A stretch of DNA of 14,799 nucleotides from assembly GCA_002341165.1 (NCBI GenBank), contig DDNL01000009.1, positions 4,370 to 19,168 of the forward strand, given 5' to 3'. Position 1 is the first letter of the stretch; each line of letters begins with the position of its first letter. The notes beneath the pieces were generated by a model. That model saw only the letters and a list, made by a program, of their open reading frames with translations, was not told the origin of the DNA and made no database searches. The position numbers and the translations under genes are program-made. Source of the DNA: Shewanellaceae bacterium UBA2521. GTDB taxonomy: Bacteria; Pseudomonadota; Gammaproteobacteria; Enterobacterales; Shewanellaceae. Below are positions 2,088-14,365 of this stretch, in pieces.

Positions 2088-2148
2088 AGGATTCTTTTTA
2101 ATATAAATAGTCTTTGTTACTTATACTCCATTTTTGAGATTAATTTTT

Positions 2149-4440
2149 ATGATGTTTAAAAAAAATAACCTTGCAATCCTAGTAGGATTTACTTTTTGTA
2201 CACCAAAGCTCTTTGCTCAGGAAGTTCAGCAGTTAGATACTGCCCATATTCAAGCTGAACATGTTGAAGAAGAGGATGTTATTGCGCCTCAAAGCCTTGT
2301 GACATCGGACGCTATTGATCGTGATTTGATACAAGATAGTGTAGATCTCTTTAAACATGATTCTGGTGTTATCATTACAGAAGGATCACGAGGTGGTATT
2401 GCCTCTATTCAAGTTCGTGGTCTTGGTCAGGATCGAGTGAAGGTCATTATGGATGGACAGTCACAATCAACTTTTACTGTGAAGGGTGGTTCTGTCCCTT
2501 ATATTGATTCAAGTATGCAGCTTTCTGATCCTGAATTTATTAAACAAGCTAAAGCCATCAAGGGTGCGCAGTCGAGTCGTTATGGTTCTGGAGCTATGGC
2601 CGGTGTTGTTAAAATTGATACCAAAGATCCCGAAGACTTAACGAAAGGTAAACCTTTCGGTGGATACCTTAAATCTGGCTATCGATCCAAAGATGCATCC
2701 TTTAAGCAAACACTAGGGTTGGCGACAGAACATGAATCTTTTAGAAGTTTATTGATGCTATCTTATTTACAAGGTGAAGAATTACAGCGTTCAAGTGATT
2801 TCATCTATCAATCAAATGATACAAAGTATTTAGAAAAAAAGAACCTAAATATCCTAGCTAAAATGGCTTACCGTCTAAATGATAGCCATGATCTTAAAAC
2901 CTATTATCTTTCATCACATGGTGATAATGAATCTGACTTAATCCACACAACGAAAAAAGACTACCATTCTGACGACCAAAACAGAAGATACCAGATAGGT
3001 TTAAGTCACGATTGGAATCAAGACTTAACGGTGGCAGACCATATCAAAACACAAGTGACATGGTCAGAGAAAAAGAATCAACAAAAGACAAGCTGGCTTG
3101 AACTTGGATCTCAAGCTCAAGCTCAATCTCCACATGGGCATGTTCATGGGCATGGTGCAGGTGATCATGCACATGGTACAGCCGGTCATGCACATGGGCA
3201 TGTTCATGCACATGGTACAGGCGATCATGCACATGGTACAGCCGGTCATGCACATGGTGCAGGTGGTCATGCACATGGTGCGAATCAAGCAAAAACAGAT
3301 GTAAAAGATAAGTCTAAGCTTAAGGATTATCGCTATAAATCAACCCACCTTTCTATAAAAATCGATGCGGACAAGAAGAACGACGTTTTTGATACGCATT
3401 ATGGTGTAAGTTTTGATACCATCAAGAATGCGAATGATAATACCGAGTATACGACTGTTGACGGCAAAAGGTCTCAAAGGAATATTTTTTATACACCAGA
3501 AGTTAGCACAAACCTTTATGCGGGATACGTTTCAACGGATATTAAATTGTTCGAAGAACAGCTTATCGTGAAGCCATCGATAAGGTATGACTATGTTGGT
3601 ATCAAGCCCCAGAGAGCATCTTTATCAGCAGCAATCAACAAGAAAACGCCTGATTATACATTTTCGCATGTGAGTAAAGGGCTGGCTTTAGAGTGGTTGC
3701 CGACACAACAACACAAGCTTGTTTTATCTGTCAAGGAAGGTTTTAGAACTCCATCTTATCACGATTTATTTTTCCAATGGGAAAACCCGGCATATCAATA
3801 TGCAGTGGTACCTAGTGCTGATTTAAAAGAAGAGACCGCGATCAATTACGGTATAGATTATACCTATAACTCTTTGCAGTCTCGCACGTCGTTAAGGTTA
3901 TTCTACAGTGATTACGATGATTTTATTGATACAAATTCAACAAAAGAAGATGGTATATCTATACAACGTAATACCAATATTGCTAAAGCAACCATTAAAG
4001 GTATTGAGTTTTCTCATGTTGTTTATTGGCAAAGTGACTTAGCTACAGCAGAAGGATTTTCAACAGGTTTCTCTGCTCAATACTACAAAGGTAAAGATCA
4101 GCACGGAAATCGTCTCAGCAGCGTTTCGCCTTGGTCAATGAATTTAAATCTGAGCTATGATGGCGTAGGCAAGATGTGGGGTACAGGCCTTAAAACAACT
4201 TATACAGCGAAGTCAAGCAGTGTTAGTAAGAATAGCATTGAGATTCCAAGCGTAAAGATGATGGACTTTACCCTTTATTATAAGCCTATCGAGCGCATAA
4301 AATTGACGGCTGGAGTCTTCAATATTTTAGATCAAGAGGTTTACAAATGGACAGAAGTCAAAGATGCAAGTAAGCCTTTGACAGATAGAATGAAGCAAGC
4401 AGGGCGTAACTACGGTCTTTCTATTGCTTACCAATTTTAA
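2149..4440 (+). CDS. TonB-dependent outer-membrane receptor, heme/hemoglobin-receptor-like, with a His-rich insertion
   Basis: Start taken as ATG 2149, giving signal peptide MMFKKNNLAILVGFTFCTPKLFA/QEV. The plug motif is IQVRGLGQDRVKVIMDGQ. FRTPSYHDLFFQWENP resembles the FRAP...H...NPNL heme-receptor signature. The C-terminal barrel strand ends ...GLSIAYQF. Heme-gene context supports the call. Confidence 0.88.
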   Translation: MMFKKNNLAILVGFTFCTPKLFAQEVQQLDTAHIQAEHVEEEDVIAPQSLVTSDAIDRDLIQDSVDLFKHDSGVIITEGSRGGIASIQVRGLGQDRVKVIMDGQSQSTFTVKGGSVPYIDSSMQLSDPEFIKQAKAIKGAQSSRYGSGAMAGVVKIDTKDPEDLTKGKPFGGYLKSGYRSKDASFKQTLGLATEHESFRSLLMLSYLQGEELQRSSDFIYQSNDTKYLEKKNLNILAKMAYRLNDSHDLKTYYLSSHGDNESDLIHTTKKDYHSDDQNRRYQIGLSHDWNQDLTVADHIKTQVTWSEKKNQQKTSWLELGSQAQAQSPHGHVHGHGAGDHAHGTAGHAHGHVHAHGTGDHAHGTAGHAHGAGGHAHGANQAKTDVKDKSKLKDYRYKSTHLSIKIDADKKNDVFDTHYGVSFDTIKNANDNTEYTTVDGKRSQRNIFYTPEVSTNLYAGYVSTDIKLFEEQLIVKPSIRYDYVGIKPQRASLSAAINKKTPDYTFSHVSKGLALEWLPTQQHKLVLSVKEGFRTPSYHDLFFQWENPAYQYAVVPSADLKEETAINYGIDYTYNSLQSRTSLRLFYSDYDDFIDTNSTKEDGISIQRNTNIAKATIKGIEFSHVVYWQSDLATAEGFSTGFSAQYYKGKDQHGNRLSSVSPWSMNLNLSYDGVGKMWGTGLKTTYTAKSSSVSKNSIEIPSVKMMDFTLYYKPIERIKLTAGVFNILDQEVYKWTEVKDASKPLTDRMKQAGRNYGLSIAYQF
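3133..3279 (+). repeat. Coding His-rich low-complexity tract (17 His in 49 aa) with an internal ~60-nt duplication
   Basis: HGHVHGHGAGDHAHGTAGHAHGHVHAHGTGDHAHGTAGHAHGAGGHAHG. The string GATCATGCACATGGTACAGCCGGTCATGCACATGG occurs twice, about 60 nt apart (near 3162 and 3222). This tract generates three overlapping shadow ORFs in the track. Confidence 0.9.
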
Positions 4441-4815: not shown

Positions 4816-4844
4816 AGAGTTTAGTTACACCCCAAAAATATATA

Positions 4845-4897
4845 TTTTTTGTTTTTTTTGTTTTTATTTTGTTTTGTTTTTGTTTTTTTATTTTTTT
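4845..4897 (+). repeat. 53-nt T-rich tract (T4-T8 runs interrupted only by single G or A)
   Basis: TTTTTTGTTTTTTTTGTTTTTATTTTGTTTTGTTTTTGTTTTTTTATTTTTTT. It lies between the repeat element and the small GG-leader ORF. Confidence 0.85.
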
Positions 4898-4965
4898 ATG
4901 TTAAGTTAAATGCGCCATCAAAATATGGTTAAAAATAAATTTAAAAAAATAAAGAGGATGTTAAA

Positions 4966-5362: not shown

Positions 5363-6031
5363 GTGTTATGCTCTGTTCAGCCAGATAGTTTTGAAACGCT
5401 TTTGCTAAATATTGAGCACCTTGGTCGCTATGAAACAGCAAAGGCTCCGTCGGCTTACGCAGGTTGATGGCCATTCTTAAAGCTTCGAGCACCAAGTTGG
5501 TGTTTTGGGTAGATTAAATACGCCAGCCAATGACTCGGCGAGAATGCAAATCCGTCACCACCGCCAAATAGCACCAACCTTCTGCGGTTCGCAAGTAAGT
5601 GACATCGCCAGCCCAAGCTTGATTGACAGACTCAGGGTTAAAGCGTTGATTCAACTCTTTTTGAGCTTCTGTTTTGGGTTTAATGAGCGATAAGGGCTTT
5701 TTCGGCGCTGTTTGACCACCAAACCCAGCTTGTTCATGAGACTTCTGGTCTTATAACGGCCAATTTTAAAGCCCTCACGGCGCAAATGCTGCATCATTTG
5801 CCTTGAGCCTAAGCTTTGACGGCTGGCTTTAAAAAGCGCCTTACAACGCGATTCCAGTACTTTTTGGGCAACATAAGGCTGCGATTCTGGCTTCTTGAAC
5901 CAATCGTAAAAGGCGCTGCGACTTACTTTCAAGACCTGACACATCAGCAAAACCGGGTAAACCGCCTGATAAGTCTCAATGAAGCGGTACTTTACTTCAT
6001 TTCTTTGGCAAAAAATGCGCTGGCTTTTTTT
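5363..6031 (-). pseudogene. IS3-family transposase OrfB (rve/DDE integrase), pseudogene
   Basis: Own translation from the A7 site in the -1 frame gives ...KYRFIETYQAVYPVLLMCQVLKVSRSAFYDWFKKP...[10 protein letters not shown]. The frame then breaks at a T5 run (5698-5702; 6 would restore it). Reading resumes as [60 protein letters not shown], followed by an in-frame TAA at 5514-5516. It continues STQNTNLVLEALRMAINLRKPTEPLLFHSDQGAQYLAKAFQNYLAEQSIT and then homology ends. Confidence 0.8.
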
Positions 6032-6282
6032 AAGATTTCATGCTCTTGCTGCAAACGCTTATTTTCACGGCGTAAGCGCATTAATTCAGCGCGTTCTTCG
6101 GGTCTTAAAGCTCCTTCAGCCTGGTTTTTCTCGTACTTGACCTTCCAATTAGAAAGGATTTTTGCGGTCACGCCCACAGTTTCAGAAGCCTCTTTTAGGC
6201 TATAATTATGCTCTAAAACCAGTCTGACTGCTTTGTCTTTAAATTCCTGAGTATAGGTCCTATATTTGCGTTTTTCTGTCAT
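5992..6282 (-). CDS. IS3-family transposase OrfA (HTH)
   Basis: Start taken at ATG 6282-6280, with GAGGTG 4 nt upstream. MTEKRKYRTYTQEFKDKAVRLVLEHNYSLKEASETVGVTAKILSNWKVKYEK...LRRENKRLQQEHEILKKASAFFAKEMK is the canonical IS3/IS911 OrfA pattern, including the leucine-zipper end and the A7 frameshift window. Confidence 0.8.
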   Translation of the reverse strand: MTEKRKYRTYTQEFKDKAVRLVLEHNYSLKEASETVGVTAKILSNWKVKYEKNQAEGALRPEERAELMRLRRENKRLQQEHEILKKASAFFAKEMK

Positions 6283-6341
6283 GATCACCTCGGATTGAGT
6301 GTTTATTGTCCACCATTTAAATGTCCGGTTCAATTAGACCA

Positions 6342-6431
6342 TAATAGTCTTATATTTGCGTTTTTCTGTCATGATTACCTCGGGTTGAGTTTTTATTATC
6401 CACTATTTAAATGTCCGGTTCAATTAGACCA
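6342..6431 (-). mobile_element. Solo left end of a second, related IS3-family copy (IR, 5'UTR and about the first 9 orfA codons)
   Basis: 6351-6431 repeats 6261-6341 with 5 mismatches in 81 nt, at a 90-bp period. It includes the same TGGTCTAATTGAACCGG terminus (ending 6431) and ATGACAGAAAAACGCAAATAT. It stops where the full copy's terminus begins. Confidence 0.75.
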
Positions 6432-6444
6432 TAATATAGCCCAA

Positions 6445-6547: not shown

Positions 6548-6587
6548 ACCGCTTAAGTTGTTGTTTTTAAACGAAAAAGAGGTCGTT

Positions 6588-7682
6588 ATGGTGAGTTTTC
6601 TCCGTATTTATAGTGTTTTGGGATTAATGGTAGTAACTTCGGTATTTGCTGAAACTAAAGAGCAGCAAACGAAGCGAACTCTATTACCTATGCACCAATA
6701 TTTATCTCAAGATGAATTATGGTTATCAGCTAAAGATGACATGCATGATAATGATATTAAAACCGTTGCAGTTTATTTCAATGGGCGCACTACACAGGAT
6801 GTCACTCAAGGTCAAGTTGATACGTTTCAATATGCCATTGAAAATAAAATCCAAAATACGGGTTTTACTGTTCGAACATGTATTGAATGTACCAAACAAC
6901 GCGTCCATTTAAGTAAGAAAAAAATAAAATACAAAACCGGTATAGAAAACAACCAAGAACTGCGTTCTTTAGGTAAAAATATTAACGTCGATGCTTTTTT
7001 AGTCTGGCGTTTATCTAAAAACTTCGATGGCTATGATTTAAATATGAAGATTATTAATGCACACACAAATAAGGTTGTGTGGATTCGTAGTTTTCAAGCA
7101 GATACAGCAGCTAAAGAAATCAAAGAGATTAAATATCCTTCACAATGGGGAGTTGCTATTGGTCACTTAGGTTTAAAAGGTGAAGCAAATATTCCTTTCA
7201 ATCCAAATATTGATGGTAGTGGTCAGTGGAAAGATCGTTTTAGCACGGTTCGCGATATCAGTATTCGTTACTACACGCGTCACAAGCCAGGTGAAAATCT
7301 TCATTACGCTATTATCGGTAACTTTTTTATGAGCGTTCCAGAAGCAGACCAAACTGCTAAGGACTTGAAAGGTCTGGGCAAAGCTGACTTTTCTGTACAA
7401 GGCGTTGGTCTTGAAGGACGTGTTTTATACAACTTTTCTCAGGACACTTTTCTAAATCCAAGTGCCTATGTTGGTGTTGGTATTTCCAGTGTAAATGAAA
7501 GACAAAAAATAAGTGCACGAACAGGGTTTGAATTTGCCTTCATGGAAAATGCGTTTGTTGATGTTGGCCTCATTTATATTGACCCTGTTGAGTACGAGTT
7601 CAAAGAGAACAATTGGTCGCAAGATAAAGCAAAATTTGCTGACTCAATCGGTACAGATTTTACCATTGGTATAAGGTTTTAA
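6588..7682 (+). CDS. Secreted protein, 364 aa: FlgO/CsgG/LpoB-like alpha/beta N-domain plus putative C-terminal outer-membrane beta-barrel-like domain
   Basis: Start at ATG 6588, with AAAGAGG 5 nt upstream. Signal peptide MVSFLRIYSVLGLMVVTSVFA/ETK. The N-domain pattern is TVAVYFNG...TFQYAIENKIQNTGFTVRTC...LGKNINVDAFLVWRLSKNFDGYDLNMKIINAHTNKVVW. This resembles the AV.PF.N ... L...G.F.VV.R ... LGADa.l.G.v......y.l...lid..tg.vvW fold family. The C-terminal half has alternating-hydrophobic strands and ends ...DFTIGIRF with a terminal Phe. Confidence 0.5.
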   Translation: MVSFLRIYSVLGLMVVTSVFAETKEQQTKRTLLPMHQYLSQDELWLSAKDDMHDNDIKTVAVYFNGRTTQDVTQGQVDTFQYAIENKIQNTGFTVRTCIECTKQRVHLSKKKIKYKTGIENNQELRSLGKNINVDAFLVWRLSKNFDGYDLNMKIINAHTNKVVWIRSFQADTAAKEIKEIKYPSQWGVAIGHLGLKGEANIPFNPNIDGSGQWKDRFSTVRDISIRYYTRHKPGENLHYAIIGNFFMSVPEADQTAKDLKGLGKADFSVQGVGLEGRVLYNFSQDTFLNPSAYVGVGISSVNERQKISARTGFEFAFMENAFVDVGLIYIDPVEYEFKENNWSQDKAKFADSIGTDFTIGIRF

Positions 7683-7689
7683 GGTGAAG

Positions 7690-8193
7690 ATGATGAAATT
7701 AAACACACTTTTAATTATGACGATGGTCGCTTTAACCGCTACAGCGGCGTCGGCTGAAGAAGCGAGTTCAACGTCTGAAAAACAGCAGAAAAAATCAAAG
7801 ATGATGAATGTGAATGTGAAAGGTCAAGGCAACATGTATAACTCGGATGTTGATTTTGATTTAAACGATCCAAACGTCATCGTTACGATTGAAACAGATG
7901 AAACAGATGAAACAGAAGACAGTATGTTCGATGAGAAAAAAGCGAATAAATTGCATAGTAAAGCTCAAAAGTTAGCGCGAACGGGTCGTTACCAAGAAGC
8001 CTTAACTTTGCTTAAAGAAGCTGAGACTTTAACAGAAAACCCAGCAAAAATTTTATCGTTGCAAGGGAGCGCTCTATACAAATTAAATCGAATTGATAGT
8101 GCGAAAGATGCGTGGAATGAATCACTACGACACGACTCAAAACAGCCTGAAATTAAACGGATGTTGTCTTGGTTAGAGAAGGAGAAGTCATAA
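7690..8193 (+). CDS. Periplasmic TPR-like protein, ~167 aa
   Basis: AAGGTGA overlaps the upstream stop. ATG at 7690 (or 7693). Signal peptide MKMMKLNTLLIMTMVALTATAASA/EE, then an acidic linker with ETDETDETED. Two TPR-like helical pairs follow: ANKLHSKAQKLARTGRYQEALTLLKEAETLTENP and AKILSLQGSALYKLNRIDSAKDAWNESLRHDSKQP. Confidence 0.6.
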   Translation: MMKLNTLLIMTMVALTATAASAEEASSTSEKQQKKSKMMNVNVKGQGNMYNSDVDFDLNDPNVIVTIETDETDETEDSMFDEKKANKLHSKAQKLARTGRYQEALTLLKEAETLTENPAKILSLQGSALYKLNRIDSAKDAWNESLRHDSKQPEIKRMLSWLEKEKS

Positions 8194-9842
8194 TGAGACA
8201 GGTTAAACATATAATTTTATGGGTATTGCTCGTATCTTGTAGCGCTATGGCACAAGACAATACATCGTTAAAACTAAAACAAATGTCGTTTTCGGCAGAG
8301 CTAGAAAGTCGTTTAAACAGCGATGTTGAGCGAGTTATTGGAACCAATAAGCACATTTTATCGGTGCGCTCTGAATTTGTTTATGATGCAAAAACTGCAT
8401 CAAACAAGACTGATTCGATCGATATGGATATATCGGATGCACCTGATTTACCTGGATTATCGGGTATGCCGGCTATCGATGAGCCGAAACCAGCTAAAAA
8501 AGCAGTAAAAGAGCCAATGATTCGTTCGTTTAATACGAAATTAATTTTGGACCAGAGTGTGACCGCTGAACAAGAACAGTTATTACGTGGTTTGTTACTT
8601 CAGAAATTAGAGTACGACCCTATGCGTGGTGACCAATTTAGCATAACGCGTGCAGAACTTGATACAGCATCAGCTGTTGATGAGATTCAATCCTTATGGG
8701 ATGAGTACTGGCCTTTAATAGCTGCCTTAGCTGCTTTATTACTATTGTTACTTATTTGGTTCATCGTACGTCGTTCATCGAAAAAGAAAGATGCTGATGT
8801 TGCACCGGTAACATTAGATAAACCAACTTCGCCAGAAGCATTGCTTGATATGAAAAAAGGTGAGTTAAAAGCGATTCGTGAAAAGCTGGTTAAACAAAGC
8901 TTAAGTGAGCCTGAAAAAACAAAAGAAGTGATGAGCAGCTTGAGTTTAAATGAGCAGAACTTGCCTATGTTGTCGTCAACATACCAAGAGCTTGGACGTG
9001 CTTTATTTACATCGATGTATCCAACTTTGGTACCCAATATTCCAAGTTATTTGAAGTATTTAGAAGAAAATCCAACAGATTACGATGGTTTAGTACGTCA
9101 CTTAACCGATTTAAATCATTTGCTTTCAGATGCGCAATCATCGGATCAATTTGAAAATAAAGTGAAGCCTTTTGGATTCTTAGAGCGCATGACGGATAAT
9201 CAAATCCGTTGGGTACTCGATGACGAATCAGATCGTGTGAAAGCGGTTGTATTATGTCAGTTAAGCACAGACAAAGCGTCTAAATTGCTAACAACTTTTA
9301 ATGCCCAGACGCAAACACAATTAGCCATTGAGATTGCTCAGTTTAAATCGATGCCGATGACAACCTTTAATGAAGTTGCTGCATCATTAGCTGTAAAAGC
9401 ACGTTCAGTGCCAGATTTTAATACGATTGCTGTTGATGGCACACAATTACTTATTAAGATGTTAGATAGTATGAATTTATCGCAAGCAGAAGCTTTGGTT
9501 TCTCAGTTGAAATCGAGCTCGCCAGATATCTATCTAGATCTTCGACAAGTGTATTACATGTTTGAAGACATCTTGAGAACACCTGCGAATGTATTGAGCA
9601 ATCACTTACGTACGATGGAACCAAAAACGTTAGCCTTAGCCCTTTCAGAATTTACGGAAGAGCAAGTGGGTAAAGTATTATCGTCATTCCCTGAGCGTTT
9701 TGTTGCGATGTTGAAGCAAGAAATTCAGCAAGTAACGGATTTAGATAAAGGCAATGTTGAATCTGCTAAGCAGCAAGTCACCTTAGTTATACGTGAAGCG
9801 TTGAAAAACAAGCAGTTCAGTATGAATGATTTAGAGGTGTAA
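8193..9842 (+). CDS. Membrane-anchored FliF-like ring-building-motif / FliG-like (middle + C-terminal domain) fusion protein, 549 aa
   Basis: ATG 8193 overlaps the upstream TAA (TAATG), with GAAGGAG upstream. Signal peptide or lipobox MRQVKHIILWVLLVSC-SAMA-QD. The periplasmic segment 8301-8660 is FliF RBM3-like. One TM helix YWPLIAALAALLLLLLIWFIV (8706-8768) is followed by RRSSKKK. The cytoplasmic segment 9168-9839 matches FliG_M (PFGFLERMTDNQIRWVLDDESDRVKAVVLCQLSTDKASKLLTTFNAQTQTQLAIEIAQ). It also matches FliG_C (FEDILRTPANVLSNHLRTMEPKTLALALSEFTEEQVGKVLSSFPERFVAMLKQEI...VESAKQQVTLVIREAL). Confidence 0.65.
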   Translation: MRQVKHIILWVLLVSCSAMAQDNTSLKLKQMSFSAELESRLNSDVERVIGTNKHILSVRSEFVYDAKTASNKTDSIDMDISDAPDLPGLSGMPAIDEPKPAKKAVKEPMIRSFNTKLILDQSVTAEQEQLLRGLLLQKLEYDPMRGDQFSITRAELDTASAVDEIQSLWDEYWPLIAALAALLLLLLIWFIVRRSSKKKDADVAPVTLDKPTSPEALLDMKKGELKAIREKLVKQSLSEPEKTKEVMSSLSLNEQNLPMLSSTYQELGRALFTSMYPTLVPNIPSYLKYLEENPTDYDGLVRHLTDLNHLLSDAQSSDQFENKVKPFGFLERMTDNQIRWVLDDESDRVKAVVLCQLSTDKASKLLTTFNAQTQTQLAIEIAQFKSMPMTTFNEVAASLAVKARSVPDFNTIAVDGTQLLIKMLDSMNLSQAEALVSQLKSSSPDIYLDLRQVYYMFEDILRTPANVLSNHLRTMEPKTLALALSEFTEEQVGKVLSSFPERFVAMLKQEIQQVTDLDKGNVESAKQQVTLVIREALKNKQFSMNDLEV

Positions 9843-9844
9843 GC

Positions 9845-10627
9845 ATGATCTCCTTTAGTAACATATTTGGATTCTTATTAGCGATTGGACTCATATGTGG
9901 TTCAATCATGATGTCGACAGACAACTATTTGTTGTTTGTCAGCATCTCAAGTTTGATTATCGTTGTGGGTGGCTCTTTTGCAGCTTCTCTGGTTGGTTAC
10001 TCATTTCCGTTGGTATTCAGCGCCTTAAAAGGTATTTTACAAAACCTTATGATTGAAGATAACGACATGAAAACCAAGCACATGTCAATTCGACGTATGA
10101 CCGAGTGGAACAACACGTTTCATTCAGGCGGTATCACTGAGTTAGAAAACTCATTAACAGAAAAAGAAAAGAAAGATTCTTTTATCAAGCTAGGTATCGA
10201 TTTAATCGGTACAGGCTACAAAGGTGAAGAGTTACAAGCACTATTGGAAGAAAGCAATGAAAGCCAATCCATGCAAGACATGCGTCATGCTGAAGTGTTA
10301 AATACTTTAGCTAACTTCGCACCGGGTTTTGGTATGGTTGGTACGTTAATCGGTTTAATCGTGATGCTAGATAATTTAAGTGGCGATATGGCGGTACTAG
10401 GAAAAGGCTTAGCGGTTGCTCTTCTTACAACCTTTTACGGTGTTATTTCAGCGCAATTATTTTTTAAACCAGCTTCTATGCGTGTACAACGTCGTGTTGA
10501 GATGGAAGCACATCGTCGAGAAATGCAAATCAGAGCTTTTATGATGATGACGACTAAACGTCCTTCTCTTCACGTTCAAGATCATATGAATGGTTATTTA
10601 CCCTTTAATAAGCGCTTGGAAGATTAA
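9845..10627 (+). CDS. MotA/PomA-like stator A subunit (MotA_ExbB proton-channel family), 260 aa
   Basis: GAGGTG lies upstream and there is a 2-nt gap after the preceding stop. The protein has four TM segments with a ~100-aa cytoplasmic loop between TM2 and TM3. The conserved core is LANFAPGFGMVGTLIGLIVML...MAVLGKGLAVALLTTFYGVISAQLFFKPAS, including prolines at the positions of E. coli MotA P173 and P222. Confidence 0.8.
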   Translation: MISFSNIFGFLLAIGLICGSIMMSTDNYLLFVSISSLIIVVGGSFAASLVGYSFPLVFSALKGILQNLMIEDNDMKTKHMSIRRMTEWNNTFHSGGITELENSLTEKEKKDSFIKLGIDLIGTGYKGEELQALLEESNESQSMQDMRHAEVLNTLANFAPGFGMVGTLIGLIVMLDNLSGDMAVLGKGLAVALLTTFYGVISAQLFFKPASMRVQRRVEMEAHRREMQIRAFMMMTTKRPSLHVQDHMNGYLPFNKRLED

Positions 10628-10629
10628 TC

Positions 10630-11274
10630 ATGGCTAAGAGCAGAAAGAAAGTTGCACTAGAAGAGAGTAATAGTTGGTTACTGACGTACAGTGATGTTGT
10701 CACTTTATTGGTCGCTTTCTTTGTACTTTTAATTGCAACGTCTCAAGTAGATGAAGGTAAGTTGGAAGATGTTAAGCAAGGGTTATCAATAGTGTCGGAT
10801 TCAGAATCACAAACACCGATGCAAGATTTAAGTGAGCAAGTAGAAACGATCATTAAAGAGCAAGAGTTAGCATCAATTAAAGTTAAAAAAGTCATTGATG
10901 GTATCAAAATCGAACTTGATAGTGAAAACTTGTATGAATCTGGATCAGCATCTTTAAAGCCCGAAGGAAAAAAGATTCTCGTTGAGTTTACCAAGGCTAT
11001 TAATAGTGTTGATTTGGATCATCGTAACATTGTGATTGAAGGTCACAGTGACGATGTGCCAATCCGTAACGCTGAATTTCATAACAACTGGGAATTATCC
11101 TCAGCTCGCGCTATTGAAGTGACGTTACATCTTATTGACTTAGGTGTTGACAAATCTAAGCTACGAGCAGTTTCTTATGCTGATTCTCAGCCTAGAGCAA
11201 ATAAGGAATTACCAATCGCGGAGCAGAGACAACAAAATCGACGCGTTGTTATTTACATAAAACGAGCGATATAA
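10630..11274 (+). CDS. MotB/PomB-like stator B subunit with OmpA-like peptidoglycan-binding domain, 214 aa
   Basis: 2-nt gap after motA-like. The N-terminus SWLLTYSDVVTLLVAFFVLL carries the channel Asp in the MotB context (..TYADLMTLL..). The C-terminal OmpA-like domain reads YESGSASLKPEGKKIL...IVIEGHSDDVPIRNAEFHNNWELSSARAIEV...QNRRVVIYI. Confidence 0.8.
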   Translation: MAKSRKKVALEESNSWLLTYSDVVTLLVAFFVLLIATSQVDEGKLEDVKQGLSIVSDSESQTPMQDLSEQVETIIKEQELASIKVKKVIDGIKIELDSENLYESGSASLKPEGKKILVEFTKAINSVDLDHRNIVIEGHSDDVPIRNAEFHNNWELSSARAIEVTLHLIDLGVDKSKLRAVSYADSQPRANKELPIAEQRQQNRRVVIYIKRAI

Positions 11275-11298: not shown

Positions 11299-11322
11299 GT
11301 ACGAAAACATTCGTTTTCGTAC
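11299..11322 (+). terminator. Hairpin downstream of the operon (possible terminator, weak U-tract)
   Basis: Perfect 10-bp stem GTACGAAAAC / GTTTTCGTAC with loop ATTC, 25 nt after the motB-like stop. It is followed by ATTCTCTG rather than a clean T-run. Confidence 0.45.
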
Positions 11323-12001: not shown

Positions 12002-14365
12002 ATGTTAAATACTAAGAATTATATATATTTTATTTTTCTTTTTATATTAGGCTGTGCAGACAGTTCTGAATTTAATATTATTGAAGAAATGCAAGGACAA
12101 CCTGCTCAAGGAGGACAACCTGATCAAGGAGGACAACCTGATCAAGGAGGACAACCTGACCAAGGTGGACAACCTGATCAAGGAGGACAACCTGACCAAG
12201 GTGGACAACCTGACCAAGGAGGACAACCTGACCAAGGAGGACAACCTGACCAAGGAGGACAACCTGACCAAGGAGGGCAACCTGACCAAGGAGGGCAACC
12301 TGACCAAGGAGGGCAACCTGACCAAGGAGGAAGCAACTCGAACCCTCAAAAATTTATTTTTTTCAACCAAAACAATCTTGAAAGTGATACCACAGGAGCT
12401 TTAAGTGGTACCGTGCACTTTGCTCAAAGCACAATCATGCCATCTAAAAATAAAATAAAAGATGATATCCAACCGCACCTTGTTTCTCAGCGTAAAGCTT
12501 TAGTTCTATTTAAGTCTCCAGATTTAGCAGAAGATAAAAACTTAAAAATGAGTATCTATGATAAAAATAATACACTTATTTATCAAAGTAATATGAACCA
12601 TCCCTCGAAATTACCTGCTATTGAGGGGGAATCTATAGAACCTATTTCTTTCAAAAATTTTGAACCTAATCAAACTCTAAATCTCAATACTCAAGCCCAA
12701 TTAAATGATCTTAAAGAAGATCTTTCGGGACAAAGATTAAGCTATTTCTTTAATACATTTGACTTTATTCATGTTCAAACCCAAGATGGAATACATATCG
12801 ATGACTTTCATCTACCTCTTCTCGCTAAAGGTTCTGAAAAGCATATACGTTTTTCATCTAGAGCTGGCTATGATTCAACCATTTACTTTTCAGGCTTAAA
12901 AAGATCCCTTAAAACGAATTTTGTCTTCGATTTTAAGTTCCAGAATCAAACTTGGTACATGAAAAGTCATATGAATCGTATAAAATACGGTTATTTTTGG
13001 AGTGCCCCCTTACCTAAGCAACATGTAAAACCTGGTATAAGTATTCGATTTACGCAAAATGGAGAAAATGGTCTGCTCAGTGCTCATGACATCAAAGTAG
13101 GTCCTGAAATCGAGTTACTTTTACACACCATTGACTTAGGGTTTCTGACTCCTTATCGAGATGAGTTTGACTTTCAAAAAAAAGATAAAAATCATATTGA
13201 GTATTATCAAACTATTCCCATAACAAAACTCATTGTGTCACGATATGAACCTCAACACTTTAAGACTGTAGGCTTACCCGATGGAACAGTCTACAACAGT
13301 AAAAGTGCAACCGACGGCGGTGTCTATACAGGTGATATGCGAAAAATTGGAAAAATTCTTATATCACATGGTATTAATTTAGCTAATTATGGTCTGACTT
13401 CATCTCATCCAACGAGTGAAAGTCCGCACAAATATATGGCTAATCAGATTACAATTCATAACTCTCAAGGTATCTATACAGATAAAGACTCAAAAGCATC
13501 AAAAAAAGTGATTCATGGCTTATCTGGAGGCAATGGTATGCTTACCTTGTCCGATTCTGAAGGTAATGAATTCAGTCATGAAATGGGGCATGCACTAAGT
13601 TTAGGACATTACCCAGGTGGCTTTGAAAGAAGTGTGCATCGCCCAGCACATATGATCAACTCAACTTGGGGGTGGGATAGTGTTCGTAATGAATTTACAC
13701 CTAATTTCGAGCATTATCCTACGAATAAACCTACCAAATATGATGGAGGCGCGAAAGATAAAGATAAAGGGAAGACTGTACAGCCTTTTCATGGACATAG
13801 TTTTGGCAAAGACTCTATGGGAGATGGAAGTCCACTCTATTCGAATCATTACACTTTATTTACTCCCTATACCATGAATAAAATGCAAAAATTTTTGGAG
13901 CGAACACCTCGCTTTGATAAGAATTCATCCACGGGCTTTTCTGTATGGGATGCTAATAAACAGGAATATAGAGAGGCTGCTAATAACGTATCTTCTTCAC
14001 GTAGAAAAGACTTCGGTGTACCTGTAGTCACTTTAGTGGGATATTATGATCCAACTAATACCATTAAATCCTTTGCCTATCCTGCTTTATACGGTAGCTA
14101 TGGTCATACTTATTATAGCTTCCCTAAATGGTTCAATAGCAAATGTCAGCTCACCGTCAAAAACGCTCGTAGAAAAAAAGTAACATTCTTCTTAAATGAC
14201 CGTGTCATTTTAAGAAAAAATATGAATAAATATCATGTCAATATTGCGCAATCATTTAAACCTACGAGTTACGATATAAAATGTCATGGTAAATTTGTTT
14301 TGCCTTCGTTTGCTATTAAACCTAAGAAATTTAATTTAAAAACCCATATTGTAGAAAGCCCTTAA
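12002..14365 (+). CDS. M66-family zinc metalloprotease lipoprotein (StcE/TagA-like mucinase family), 787 aa
   Basis: Lipoprotein signal MLNTKNYIYFIFLFILG-C (lipobox ILGC). The motif NEFSHEMGHALSLGHYPGGFERSVHRPAHMINSTWGWD parallels StcE NEFSHELGHNYGLGHYVDGFKGSVHRSAENNNSTWGWD (HExxHxxxGH). Further StcE-like blocks are SSTGFS.W, FGVPVVTLVGYYDP, YPALYGSYG, CQLTV and MNKYHVNI. Confidence 0.85.
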   Translation: MLNTKNYIYFIFLFILGCADSSEFNIIEEMQGQPAQGGQPDQGGQPDQGGQPDQGGQPDQGGQPDQGGQPDQGGQPDQGGQPDQGGQPDQGGQPDQGGQPDQGGQPDQGGSNSNPQKFIFFNQNNLESDTTGALSGTVHFAQSTIMPSKNKIKDDIQPHLVSQRKALVLFKSPDLAEDKNLKMSIYDKNNTLIYQSNMNHPSKLPAIEGESIEPISFKNFEPNQTLNLNTQAQLNDLKEDLSGQRLSYFFNTFDFIHVQTQDGIHIDDFHLPLLAKGSEKHIRFSSRAGYDSTIYFSGLKRSLKTNFVFDFKFQNQTWYMKSHMNRIKYGYFWSAPLPKQHVKPGISIRFTQNGENGLLSAHDIKVGPEIELLLHTIDLGFLTPYRDEFDFQKKDKNHIEYYQTIPITKLIVSRYEPQHFKTVGLPDGTVYNSKSATDGGVYTGDMRKIGKILISHGINLANYGLTSSHPTSESPHKYMANQITIHNSQGIYTDKDSKASKKVIHGLSGGNGMLTLSDSEGNEFSHEMGHALSLGHYPGGFERSVHRPAHMINSTWGWDSVRNEFTPNFEHYPTNKPTKYDGGAKDKDKGKTVQPFHGHSFGKDSMGDGSPLYSNHYTLFTPYTMNKMQKFLERTPRFDKNSSTGFSVWDANKQEYREAANNVSSSRRKDFGVPVVTLVGYYDPTNTIKSFAYPALYGSYGHTYYSFPKWFNSKCQLTVKNARRKKVTFFLNDRVILRKNMNKYHVNIAQSFKPTSYDIKCHGKFVLPSFAIKPKKFNLKTHIVESP
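12092..12331 (+). repeat. 18-bp in-frame tandem repeat encoding QGQPAQ-(GGQPDQ)x12-GG
   Basis: Twelve full units lie between 12110 and 12325, at an exact 18-nt period. They differ only at synonymous positions (GAT/GAC, GGA/GGT/GGG), with variants clustered along the array. The array produces two long shadow ORFs in the track. Confidence 0.95.

Follow-up and report, generated by a model that had tools for sequence, protein, structure and literature searches.

In flagella, FliF forms the MS-ring, with about 33-34 subunits, and FliG the top of the C-ring; the ring-building motifs RBM1 and RBM2 of FliF house the export gate, and the EHPQR motif of FliG docks the C-ring switch protein FliM. Engineered FliF-FliG fusions of Salmonella and Vibrio alginolyticus assemble rings (PMC6079021, PMC10941966, PMC11481574; PDB 8z4d/8z4g). 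Outside the flagellum, units of the MotA/MotB family drive the 5:2 ion-driven motors ExbBD-TonB, TolQR-TolA-Pal, GldLM, AglRQS and ZorAB, which have no FliG or FliF partner and rely on the B subunit or on a periplasmic partner to transmit work. The alpha-beta-beta-alpha-beta ring-building fold also occurs in SctJ/PrgK of the injectisome and in SpoIIIAG of the sporulation channel, neither of which is fused to FliG.

In the window (the whole stretch of DNA that was analyzed, 14,799 nucleotides of a Shewanellaceae contig), five genes stand in the order FlgO-like protein, TPR protein, FliF-FliG fusion, MotA and MotB:

6558..7682, + strand: operon gene 1, secreted protein of 374 aa with a sub-threshold FlgO-like N-terminal domain
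7684..8193, + strand: operon gene 2, periplasmic TPR protein of 169 aa (Pfam TPR_2 at 2e-8)
8193..9842, + strand: operon gene 3, FliF(RBM3-TM2-C-terminal helix)::FliG(N-M-C) fusion of 549 aa, reading frame intact
9845..10627, + strand: operon gene 4, flagellar-type MotA/PomA-like stator A subunit of 260 aa (MotA_ExbB 7e-24)
10630..11274, + strand: operon gene 5, MotB-like stator B subunit of 214 aa (MotB_plug 1e-14, OmpA 1.2e-16)
11299..11322, + strand: terminator-like 10-bp hairpin just after motB (consensus match only), likely the end of the operon

Gene 3 is a natural in-frame fusion of a truncated FliF and a complete but diverged FliG, and the operon is a conserved, self-contained module with its own flagellar-type MotA/MotB stator. 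The pairing with such a stator is shared with the flagellar rotor, and the presence of a MotA/MotB-family unit outside the flagellum is shared with the 5:2 motors. In contrast to the latter, the stator belongs to the flagellar clade and is accompanied by a torque-receiving FliG domain on a ring-building protein.

Architecture of the FliF-FliG fusion

The start ATG of the fusion at 8193 is preceded by an AAGGAG Shine-Dalgarno sequence and overlaps the stop codon of the upstream gene (TAATG), and the identical 549-aa protein is called on 7 public contigs. The protein runs from a signal peptide through a periplasmic domain and one TM helix to cytoplasmic FliG_M and FliG_C domains. The original prediction of a FliF-type ring-building motif, a TM helix and FliG middle and C-terminal domains in a single polypeptide was borne out by Pfam, profile and Foldseek searches alike, and the motif can now be specified as RBM3 and the helix as the equivalent of FliF TM2. 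With hhalign, the family gave one colinear alignment of 590 columns to concatenated E. coli FliF and FliG (probability 99.3, E 1.5e-20), so that RBM3, TM2, the FliF C-terminal helix and the FliG N, M and C domains follow one another as in the two flagellar proteins. The best PDB match of the family profile was, again colinearly, the engineered Vibrio FliF-FliG fusion chain 8z4d_1, and a Foldseek search with the AlphaFold model returned FliG entries first and FliF RBM3 rings directly after. Since the two parts are covalently joined, they are present in a fixed 1:1 stoichiometry, as in the engineered fusions, for which ring assembly has been seen. The parts of the protein are as follows:

8193..8252, + strand: signal peptide, residues 1-20 (...SAMA/Q); A-x-A/Q conserved in homologs, cleavage inferred
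8229-8240, + strand: lipobox-like LVSC, residues 13-16, inside the signal peptide
8262..8381, + strand: RBM3 first half, alpha1-beta1, residues 24-63 (AlphaFold secondary structure; aligned to FliF 229-270)
8382..8516, + strand: insertion at the FliF beta-collar position, residues 64-108, predicted disordered
8517..8654, + strand: RBM3 second half, beta2-alpha2-beta3, residues 109-154, aligned to the FliF segment ...LTADQMKQIEDLTREAMGFSDKRGDTLNVV
8706..8774, + strand: TM helix (residues 172-194) corresponding to FliF TM2; RRSSKKK comes next, in the cytoplasm
8775..8945, + strand: cytoplasmic linker and equivalent of the FliF C-terminal FliG-binding helix (…ELKAIREKLVKQSLSEPEKTKEVMSSL), by hmmalign
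8946..9140, + strand: diverged FliG_N-like domain, residues 252-316 (hhalign; alignment to the split short FliG N-terminus)
9168..9413, + strand: FliG middle domain, residues 326-407 (Pfam FliG_M)
9504..9809, + strand: FliG C-terminal domain, residues 438-539 (Pfam FliG_C; alignment to T. maritima FliG)
9690-9734, + strand: torque helix PERFVAMLKQEIQQV, within the FliG C-terminal domain

The periplasmic part differs from flagellar FliF as follows: First, TM1 of FliF is replaced by a 20-residue signal-peptide-like segment. The signal-peptidase I site originally noted at the N-terminus is kept in homologs and is probably cleaved. The lipobox-like LVSC noted beside it is indeed present in the window, but the suggested lipidation did not hold, since Cys16 is found only in the window sequence among the aligned homologs; unlike SctJ, the family has no conserved lipobox Cys. 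Second, RBM1, RBM2 and the long beta-collar are missing, in agreement with the original prediction: PF01514 gave no match to RBM1/RBM2, and every FliF alignment begins at residue 222-229. Third, the collar position, which holds roughly 110 residues in FliF, is occupied by a 45-residue insert with pLDDT <50 over residues 66-105 in the AlphaFold model. The DLPGLSG stretch in this insert (8445-8465) carries an L-P-G-L motif invariant in the family, with L86, P87, G88 and L89 invariant or nearly so among 18-30 diverse members.

The RBM topology that had been sought is found in the AlphaFold model, which consists of alpha(24-49), beta(54-63), the disordered insert (66-105), beta(109-120), alpha(125-138) and beta(148-154). 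The two FliF-like segments quoted earlier from the periplasmic part align to exactly the FliF residues named for them, and an RGD at 8625-8633, within the second half of RBM3, is invariant. The family profile of the periplasmic part, searched against PDB sequences, matched Salmonella FliF with an E of 3.2e-7 and covered FliF 229-479, while the full-length family profile reached 5e-15 against the same protein and a Vibrionaceae-only profile reached 4.6e-7 against FliF. The window sequence alone scored 28.9 against E. coli FliF, compared with 13.6 +/- 2.4 for shuffled FliF, and Foldseek listed about 20 FliF MS-ring/RBM3 entries (E 2e-3 to 1e-2). The PF08345 (YscJ_FliF_C) cutoff of 23.8 bits is exceeded by homologs (P0188, 38.3 bits, 2.2e-9; P0183, 33.1; P0186, 28.6; and others); the window protein itself has no Pfam match to this model and aligns end to end with the matching homologs. 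The match to FliF RBM3 is far better than that to SctJ/PrgK or SpoIIIAG, for which we obtained E values of 0.2 (PrgK), 0.004-0.025 (SpoIIIAG, profile) and 0.54 (SpoIIIAG, Foldseek), even though SpoIIIAG also has an insertion between beta1 and beta2.

Behind the TM helix and its RRSSKKK, the FliG-like part lies in the cytoplasm, as first proposed. The original prediction also held that FliG_N had been dispensed with; this has to be revised, since hhalign, a motif survey and the split genes of Marinimicrobia indicate that a diverged FliG_N and the FliF C-terminal helix are both retained. The FliG-binding helix at the C-terminus of FliF has its putative counterpart at residues about 214-251, and hmmalign sets this region against the C-terminus of a split short FliF, …DLKNTRQAIITLSVGSPETATNILNNW. 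Among 23 distant family representatives, a FliF-type P..VA..L..W motif stands at the helix position, correctly spaced from the TM helix; a P..VA..I..W-type motif is also found in the split short FliF, and the window has SEPEKTKEVMSSL there, without the Trp. Behind this helix, sequence comparison indicates that residues 252-316 are homologous to FliG_N, strongly diverged. This region of the family matched a bona fide FliG_N alignment with a probability of 97% and an E of 2e-10 to 1.6e-11 (hhalign), scoring 46-60 compared with 8-9 +/- 2 for shuffled controls. Against the assignment, the Vibrionaceae-only profile gave an E of just 0.05. The Pfam FliG_N model has no match at residues 252-316, cross-matching the FliG_M region instead, and an isolated FliF_C/FliG_N model gave long helices with no Foldseek match. 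In the subfamily of the window the domain is too diverged to be visible by eye, to Pfam or to Foldseek, which explains why it was overlooked.

The boundary between the two parts is also marked in Marinimicrobia, where two adjacent genes encode a short FliF and a short FliG in place of one fusion. Positions 6-320 of the fusion-family HMM match the short FliF (4e-31) and positions 316-612 the short FliG (1.2e-80), which carries Pfam FliG_N at 4e-20; the break between the genes falls exactly at the point where the FliF C-terminal helix meets FliG_N in the fusion.

The FliG_M and FliG_C matches first noted by eye both lie above the Pfam cutoffs: FliG_M (PF14841) covers residues 336-407 with 61.1 bits (cutoff 25, E 1.2e-16), and FliG_C (PF01706) reaches 65.8 bits (cutoff 23.3, E 4.8e-18). 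In a PDB sequence search, the alignment to T. maritima FliG spans its residues 2-213; the full-length FliG equivalog TIGR00207 scored 74 bits, under its cutoff of 226.7. In contrast to flagellar FliG, the FliM-binding EHPQR motif (E. coli FliG E125, H126, P127, Q128 and R160) is lost, with EHPQ replaced by DESDR (9222-9236) and R160 by Glu in the window, and the rest of the family is similar. The torque-helix charges proposed as a check (K264, R281, D288, D289 and R297) are S, R, Q, E and D in the window and were surveyed in 216 family sequences. The helix is only partly conserved: K or R occupies the R281 position in 197 of the 216 (91%), and E or D the D289 position in 130. The other three are not conserved, the D288 equivalent being E or D in 75 and K264 and R297 lacking conservation across the 216. 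L014, the most distant operon, has changes at the D288 as well as the D289 position.

The operon, its stator and its distribution

Gene 1 contains an invariant CxxC (C108, C111), and its C-terminal half, which ends in ...TIGIRF, is a putative outer-membrane beta-barrel. FlgO matches five of eight gene 1 homologs (best E 7e-4, under the Pfam cutoff), FlgT_M and CsgG-like matches are likewise sub-threshold, and a PDB sequence search with gene 1 gave no match. The gene 1 product may resemble FlgO/FlgP/FlgT of the H-ring and disk. Every Vibrionaceae, Oceanospirillales and L014 locus has a homolog in this place; in Marinimicrobia gene 1 is not conserved and an unrelated protein stands in its place. 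Gene 2 encodes a signal peptide and an acidic ETDETDETE stretch, its stop overlaps the start of the fusion gene, and TPR proteins occupy its position in every related locus. Its product is a small periplasmic TPR protein like Vibrio MotX, a Sel1/TPR-like T-ring protein, but it matches TPR_1 and TPR_2, not Sel1. Such periplasmic TPR partners also recall CpoB of Tol-Pal, and the Marinimicrobia TPR genes weakly match TPR_6 and YfiO, the families of CpoB and BamD. By analogy, it is possible that the TPR and gene 1 proteins scaffold the stators or link them to the outer membrane. The start and stop codon overlaps between the operon genes are consistent with translational coupling.

The best NCBIfam matches of gene 4 are flagellar stator models, all under their cutoffs. 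Its product has the long cytoplasmic loop of the flagellar type and conserved equivalents of MotA P173 and P222; the E98 position holds Glu in the window and in four of six other orthologs and is changed in L014, and the R90 position holds His in the window, where most orthologs have Arg. Gene 5 encodes a plug, the channel Asp (D32 equivalent conserved) and a peptidoglycan-binding OmpA domain. Zorya and other anti-phage models (ZorA long tail, ZorC/D/E, PADLOC) revealed only a generic ZorB/MotB similarity, with ZorA at 0.0039, and no defence-system model matched the other three operon proteins.

The orthologs of the window MotA and MotB on chromosome II of A. fischeri ES114 (L007; E 5e-106 and 3e-82) identify the V. 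fischeri motA2B2 genes, VF_A0186/VF_A0187 (PMC10804989), as the stator genes of the same operon in that species; by position, VF_A0183-0185 are the three genes upstream of them, the FliF-FliG fusion among these. In soft agar, motA2 and motB2 mutants show full motility, and FlrA does not activate the two genes (Brennan et al. 2013, PMC3948606); that study treated them as unexplained flagellar stator paralogs. A stator that is dispensable for swimming and lies outside the FlrA regulon suggests that the operon is independent of the flagellum. No mention of the three genes upstream of motA2B2 was found in the main text of any paper.

At E<=1e-30, the family comprises 193 cluster representatives from several phyla, and nearly all of the 150 matches listed of these 193 are full-length fusions of 550-780 aa. 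The named sources include Gammaproteobacteria and MAGs of Fibrobacteraceae, Elusimicrobiota and Calditrichota. The five-gene operon recurs between differing flanking genes in Aliivibrio, Vibrio, Thalassolituus, Marinicellulosiphila, Bermanella and a distant metagenome lineage. Two gammaproteobacterial orders and a lineage of only 23% identity share its gene order. In one lineage (P0021; L008/L009), homologs of the fusion, the TPR protein and gene 1 are present and no MotAB lies within 9 kb. Flanking genes vary between genomes, and in the window insertion-sequence remnants lie directly upstream of the operon. Rod, hook, filament, export and switch genes are absent from the operon, unlike in flagellar systems, and no flagellar neighbor genes were seen at any locus examined. 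The reading frames of the operon are intact at every locus, and the dN/dS of the fusion is about 0.1 (0.085-0.185), indicating purifying selection, with the lowest values (0.04-0.10) over the linker and FliG-binding helix equivalent (8775..8945), in the FliF_C/FliG_N junction region.

A proposed separate ring motor and the alternatives

The combination of a FliF-FliG fusion with its own MotA/MotB and no other flagellar genes suggests a stand-alone motor module, and the fusion is probably the rotor of a ring machine that MotAB drives outside the flagellum. In such a machine, the fusion would oligomerize through RBM3 into a membrane ring with an S-ring-like face in the periplasm and a FliG ring in the cytoplasm at 1:1. 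Peptidoglycan-anchored MotAB units would conduct ions through the MotB Asp and push the torque helix of FliG_C via the pair of R281 and MotA E98 equivalents, and possibly via the partly conserved D289/R90 pair, and the ring would turn or be loaded without chemotactic switching. The mechanical output would be delivered in the periplasm, likely by way of the LPGL loop, which is invariant, and of the TPR and FlgO-like proteins, and would act on an envelope process; a likely coupling to a periplasmic or outer-membrane process is shared with the 5:2 motors. Against a rotor speak the three unconserved charges out of five (K264, D288, R297), the His at R90 of the window MotA, the L014 changes at MotA E98 and FliG D288/D289, the P0021 lineage without nearby MotAB, the absence of gene 1 conservation in Marinimicrobia, the variable neighbors and the isolated FliF_C/FliG_N model without a Foldseek match.

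Alternatively, nothing may rotate: the system could transduce energy or sense the envelope in the manner of Tol, Ton or Zorya, with FliF-FliG as a static docking platform and with MotAB ion flow powering conformational work or signals that the TPR and outer-membrane partners pass on. We regard this as unlikely, though credible: all known non-flagellar MotAB relatives work without a FliG ring (PMC12505986), and the TPR_6 and YfiO matches, the variable neighborhoods with adjoining insertion-sequence remnants, the resemblance of MotB to ZorB models and the loss of several torque-helix charges would all fit, but a rotor would have exactly this geometry, a ring-building motif joined to FliG. The flagellar-type MotA with its long loop and with R90/E98-equivalent positions conserved in most members, the R281 equivalent of the family and the lack of defence-system matches to the other three operon proteins also argue against it.

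It is rather improbable that the fusion serves the ordinary flagellar motor as an accessory or alternative part, be it as a FliG anchored in the membrane for parking, recruiting or braking stators or as a scaffold found specifically in sheathed Vibrio flagella. Co-assembly with FliF around the export gate would require RBM1 and RBM2, which are missing, and the lost FliM-binding motif, the stator encoded in the operon itself, the absence of flagellar neighbors at the loci examined and the members in a MAG of Fibrobacteraceae, a family not known to be flagellated, point away from such a part, as do the normal swimming of the motA2/motB2 mutants and the position of these genes outside the FlrA regulon. 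What speaks for it is that Vibrionaceae hold a complete flagellar system beside the operon, that gene 1 has its sub-threshold FlgO matches, and that one biofilm model of V. fischeri showed reduced expression of motA2 and motB2 along with fliA. MotX supports stators in real flagella, which counts in the same direction. So do the periplasmic TPR proteins MotC and MotK (PMC13023049).

A decaying remnant of a lost second flagellar system, without present function, is close to refuted: the many missing flagellar parts, the diverged FliG_N and torque-helix charges and the insertion-sequence fragments directly upstream in the window would suit decay, but the dN/dS range with its tightest constraint at the FliF_C/FliG_N junction, the intact ORFs, the 193 divergent clusters, the gene order kept down to 23% identity and the start/stop overlaps do not. 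Finally, a generic MgtE-N-type helical repeat with a chance similarity to FliF is refuted, since its weak Pfam MgtE_N match (0.0073, 17 bits, under cutoff) and the FliG_N cross-match to FliG_M are set against 61 and 66 bits for FliG_M and FliG_C, best PDB matches that are all FliG, a FliF match significant by three independent methods (PF08345, Foldseek and profile) and the adjacent split genes for short FliF and short FliG.

The operon is unstudied, and if the fusion is the rotor of a separate ring motor, FliF-FliG rotor parts would serve a motor outside the flagellum.

The fusion gene and its operon

The fusion gene is an intact ORF of 549 codons and the third of five tightly packed genes, which are listed here together with the features that adjoin them.

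Features of the operon and its borders (window coordinates, strand, feature)
5651-5950, minus strand, further IS3-type transposase fragment
5992-6333, minus strand, HTH_Tnp_1 ORF
6558-7682, plus strand, gene 1, secreted 374-aa protein
7684-8193, plus strand, gene 2, periplasmic TPR protein
8193-9842, plus strand, gene 3, FliF-FliG fusion
9845-10627, plus strand, gene 4, MotA-like protein
10630-11274, plus strand, gene 5, MotB-like protein with plug and OmpA domains
11299-11322, hairpin past the MotB-like gene

The fusion starts with the ATG at 8193, whose A also belongs to the TAA stop of the gene before it, and an AAGGAG ribosome-binding site precedes this ATG; the homologs start at the same point, and a protein identical to that of the window was called on seven public contigs. 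The window itself opens a Tara Oceans contig of 121 kb. The same five homologs follow in the same order in Aliivibrio fischeri, A. logei and A. finisterrensis, in Vibrio penaeicida and V. nigripulchritudo, in Thalassolituus, Marinicellulosiphila and Bermanella, and in a metagenome lineage at just 23% identity. Since the flanking genes vary among these four locus groups, the five genes move together as one block. None of the loci examined carried a fliM, fliN, export, rod or filament gene. In one MAG of high GC content (GCA_021781555.1; L008:5156-11590, L009:717-7012), the genes after the fusion encode a 454-aa TPR-like protein and a homolog of gene 1; the two proteins downstream (238 and 260 aa) had no Pfam match, and MotA/MotB were not found within 9 kb of the fusion. 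Within the window, promoter-like sites were no commoner than in shuffled sequence, and Rfam returned nothing.

The gene 1 product has an invariant C-x-E-C pair (C108, C111), which may form a disulfide or bind a metal, and invariant Trp residues among eight homologs down to 17% identity, and ends in GxRF. Pfam matched FlgO in five of the eight, always below threshold, and the gene 1 profile had no match among solved structures. In gene 2, a perfect 9-bp repeat (TGAAACAGA) present three times at 7890-7916 encodes the acidic ETDETDETE of the TPR protein.

The surrounding sequence has several features of its own. Immediately before the operon, the minus strand carries remnants of an IS3-type transposase (5651-6436), and two copies of a near-perfect 90-bp direct repeat (6257-6436) overlap the transposase ORF at its 5' end; in a sister contig (L016), rve fragments persist at this site. 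Farther upstream, a TonB-dependent receptor gene (2134-4440) has an internal His-rich repeat (…HGHVHGHGAGDHAHGTAGHAHG…), for which a 21- or 60-bp tandem repeat at 3131-3281 codes, and is followed downstream by an intergenic T-rich tract of about 55 nt (4843-4902). Its neighbours, genes for a periplasmic binding protein and a PNPOx-like protein, suggest that the cluster serves metal or haem uptake. On the other side of the operon, there is a gene for an M66/StcE-like metalloprotease with a TagA domain (12002-14365), at whose N-terminus an 18-bp unit coding for QGGQPD is repeated 13 times (12094-12331). Past it, the longer contig has an S41 peptidase gene and a gene for a very large toxin with RtxA/C80 domains.

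An exhaustive profile search for the fusion gave 193 cluster representatives at E<=1e-30, and nearly all of the 150 listed among them were full-length fusions of 550-780 aa. The named sources included Gammaproteobacteria and MAGs of Fibrobacteraceae, Elusimicrobiota and Calditrichota, and NCBI labels the members just "FliG C-terminal domain-containing protein". A homolog search with a 30-sequence alignment returned the Vibrionaceae set and nothing further, and two scans of metagenome contigs for related loci gave no confirmed relatives.

A natural FliF-FliG fusion

The protein is a natural fusion of the RBM3-TM2-C-terminal helix part of FliF to the N, M and C domains of FliG, and we hold the identity of its domains with high confidence. 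As the original prediction had it, the FliG middle and C domains occur in one polypeptide: Pfam found FliG_M at residues 336-407 (1.2e-16) and FliG_C at residues 438-539 (4.8e-18), and the top solved-structure matches were all FliG, the best being T. maritima FliG-MC (1.3e-14). A generic MgtE-N domain was rejected, as MgtE_N reached only 17 bits in Pfam, under its cutoff, and the best PDB matches were all to FliG. The predicted TM helix was likewise found, as a lone hydrophobic helix at residues 172-194 followed by the positive-inside RRSSKKK. Because the N-terminus is a short signal-peptide-like segment and this TM helix is the only one, residues 21-171 are placed in the periplasm and the FliG part in the cytoplasm. 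The lipobox-like Cys to which the original prediction drew attention is found in the window sequence alone; the conserved feature is the A-x-A|Q signal-peptidase I site, and a lipoprotein anchor was rejected since the Cys is not conserved.

The AlphaFold model of the fusion (pLDDT 74.9) gave for the periplasmic part a helix (24-49), a strand (54-63), a disordered segment (66-105), a strand (109-120), a helix (125-138) and a strand (148-154). This modelled layout is that of the alpha-beta-beta-alpha-beta ring-building motif, interrupted between beta1 and beta2 by an insertion at the very point where FliF RBM3 carries its beta-collar. In a Foldseek search of the model against the PDB, FliG entries ranked first, followed by about 20 FliF MS-ring, S-ring or RBM3 entries (E 2e-3 to 1e-2, probability 1.0) and then by PrgK (0.2) and SpoIIIAG (0.54). 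Pfam had no match across the periplasmic region of the window fusion itself; in full-length Oceanospirillales homologs, PF08345 (YscJ_FliF_C) exceeded its gathering score across the entire periplasmic domain, with as much as 38.3 bits (2.2e-9). A profile of 18 diverse periplasmic domains aligned with Salmonella FliF 229-479, from RBM3 through TM2, at 3.2e-7, and reproduced both of the FliF alignments proposed from the window sequence. The full-length family profile matched FliF at 5e-15 and a Vibrionaceae-only profile at 4.6e-7; the lone window sequence scored 28.9 against FliF and 13.6 +/- 2.4 against shuffled FliF. From the AlphaFold layout, Foldseek, Pfam in the homologs and the profiles, the FliF-like part is real. 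RBM1, RBM2 and the long beta-collar are missing, as had been noticed, and TM1 is absent too. All 28 representatives checked have the TM helix with RGD before it and basic residues after it, and L-P-G-L is invariant or nearly so among 30 aligned family members.

FliG_N and the split genes of Marinimicrobia

The original prediction also suggested that FliG-N had been dispensed with. A diverged FliG_N is instead indicated by profile comparisons and by the split genes of Marinimicrobia. About 130 residues between the TM helix and FliG_M were modelled confidently as helices (pLDDT 82-92). Aligned by hhalign to a concatenation of E. coli FliF and FliG, the family alignment gave a colinear match across 590 columns (probability 99.3, E 1.5e-20) that spans the FliF C-terminus and FliG_N. 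The region around window residues 252-316 was compared with a FliG_N reference in which three short FliGs that have a bona fide Pfam FliG_N (4e-20) were aligned with E. coli FliG_N; the probability was 97% and E 2e-10 to 1.6e-11, with hhalign scores of 46-60 vs 8-9 +/- 2 in column-shuffled controls. A significant FliG_N comparison needed an alignment that takes in the short FliGs; against single E. coli FliF_C or FliG_N the cytoplasmic N-region was only weakly significant (0.53, 0.002, 0.005). Furthermore, 23 distant family representatives have the FliF C-terminal signature P..VA..L..W 70-95 residues past the TM helix, and the only three other matches fell in N-terminal or TM hydrophobic segments.

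Marinimicrobia (Neomarinimicrobiota) MAGs have the two parts as separate genes, a short FliF of 386 or 504 aa and then a short FliG of 310 aa, with overlapping stop and start. In the short FliF, a signal peptide is followed by RBM3, which carries an LPGF motif, then by RGD and a TM helix, and the C-terminus reads …SPETATNILNNW; PF08345 is the only Pfam domain of this protein. The short FliG has the N, M and C domains. Positions 6-320 of the fusion-family HMM matched the short FliF (4e-31) and positions 316-612 the short FliG (1.2e-80); judged by these alignments, the HMM splits exactly between the two. With hmmalign, the window's ELKAIREKLVKQSLSEPEKTKEVMSSL aligned to the end of the short FliF and its NLPMLSSTYQELGRALFTSMYP… to the LSGLEKAAILFKVLG… start of the short FliG, which places the fusion junction near residues 255-257. 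We regard this two-gene form as the decisive evidence, at the level of sequence, that FliG-N is kept. The gene order in these loci (L020-L024; for example L021:3167-10933 and L023:1195-9026) is a 326-329-aa protein, three TPR proteins, MotA, MotB, short FliF and short FliG, with no other flagellar genes within 10 kb. The 326-329-aa protein has no relation to the 374-aa product of gene 1 in the window. The fused and split forms document a natural FliF-FliG gene fusion at the very interface used by engineered fusions.

Within the window's own subfamily, FliG_N is highly diverged and escaped three methods: Pfam missed it on the window fusion, a Vibrionaceae-only profile gave E 0.05, and Foldseek of an isolated model of the cytoplasmic N-region (residues 196-335, pLDDT 79.8) returned nothing better than E 3. 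Given this last result, the FliG_N claim rests on the profile comparisons and the split genes, not on fold. The FliF_C/FliG_N region is the most constrained stretch of the fusion gene (dN/dS 0.04-0.10).

The torque interface and a possible free-standing motor

The stator of the operon looks functional from its sequence. The MotB channel Asp and MotA P173 and P222 are conserved, the MotA E98 position is Glu in the window and most relatives, and the R90 position is His in the window and Arg in most relatives. The best NCBIfam matches were PomA and MotP-type flagellar stator models, all under their equivalog cutoffs. On the rotor side, the original prediction proposed scoring the torque-helix charges, which proved partly conserved: the FliG R281 equivalent is K/R in 197 of the 216 family sequences (R in the window) and the D289 equivalent is E/D in 130 of them (E in the window). 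The equivalents of K264, D288 and R297 showed no conservation across the same set. The EHPQR FliM-docking motif is gone, reading DESDR in the window (R160 to E).

We consider it probable that the fusion is the rotor of a separate machine. For the operon as a whole, we give slightly less than even odds to a free-standing rotary motor, a FliF-RBM3/FliG ring with its own MotAB and without export gate, rod, filament or switch, which either split from the flagellum or never joined it, works in the periplasm or at the outer membrane, and exists in several phyla in fused and two-gene forms. Engineered FliF-FliG fusions form membrane rings (PMC6079021, PMC10941966, PMC11481574), and the natural fusion would, like them and like FliF, form one through RBM3. 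MotAB units would turn this ring through the FliG_C torque helix, with neither switching nor a secretion channel, and the output would be periplasmic, perhaps via the invariant LPGL loop and the TPR protein.

The main rival, a static Tol- or Zorya-like transducer, is unlikely in our estimate; defence-system models (PADLOC) found nothing past generic MotB/ZorB similarity. We give still less weight to a flagellar accessory role. The only experimental data touching the operon come from V. fischeri, where motA2 and motB2 (VF_A0186/7; PMC10804989) are dispensable for soft-agar motility and lie outside the FlrA flagellar regulon (PMC3948606). A pseudogene or relic, far less likely than the static transducer, was rejected on the dN/dS of 0.085-0.185 among Aliivibrio orthologs. 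The module is conserved and selected, has its own flagellar-type stator and a periplasmic TPR partner, and occurs across phyla in fused and split forms.

We found no description in the literature of a natural FliF-FliG fusion family or of FliG paralogs with MotAB, nothing on the genes upstream of V. fischeri motA2B2 (VF_A0183-0185), and no non-flagellar machine using FliG. Every use of FliG known to us is within a flagellum, and the known non-flagellar relatives of MotAB (Ton, Tol, Gld, Agl, Zorya) all work, to our knowledge, without FliG. In this operon, rotor and stator parts of the flagellum occur in a new arrangement that is reduced and independent of the flagellum. If the free-standing motor is real, it would be the first known non-flagellar machine with a FliG-MotA torque interface and a natural minimal rotor-stator module bearing on the evolution of the flagellar motor, and if rotation were demonstrated it would merit the name of a new kind of machine. 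Such a minimal system, made up of a single rotor polypeptide, the two proteins of the stator and one or two partners in the periplasm, would lend itself to structural and single-molecule torque studies. The operon also accounts for the motA2B2 "paralogs" of Vibrio fischeri, which had long gone unexplained in this genetically tractable host. Furthermore, it offers a concrete answer to the published question of why rotor proteins persist without a filament in many non-motile species (PMC12199754). This conserved and selected operon has kept just the part of FliF that builds rings, along with FliG and a stator of the flagellar type, and thereby shows that a rotor-stator core can stand alone as a module.
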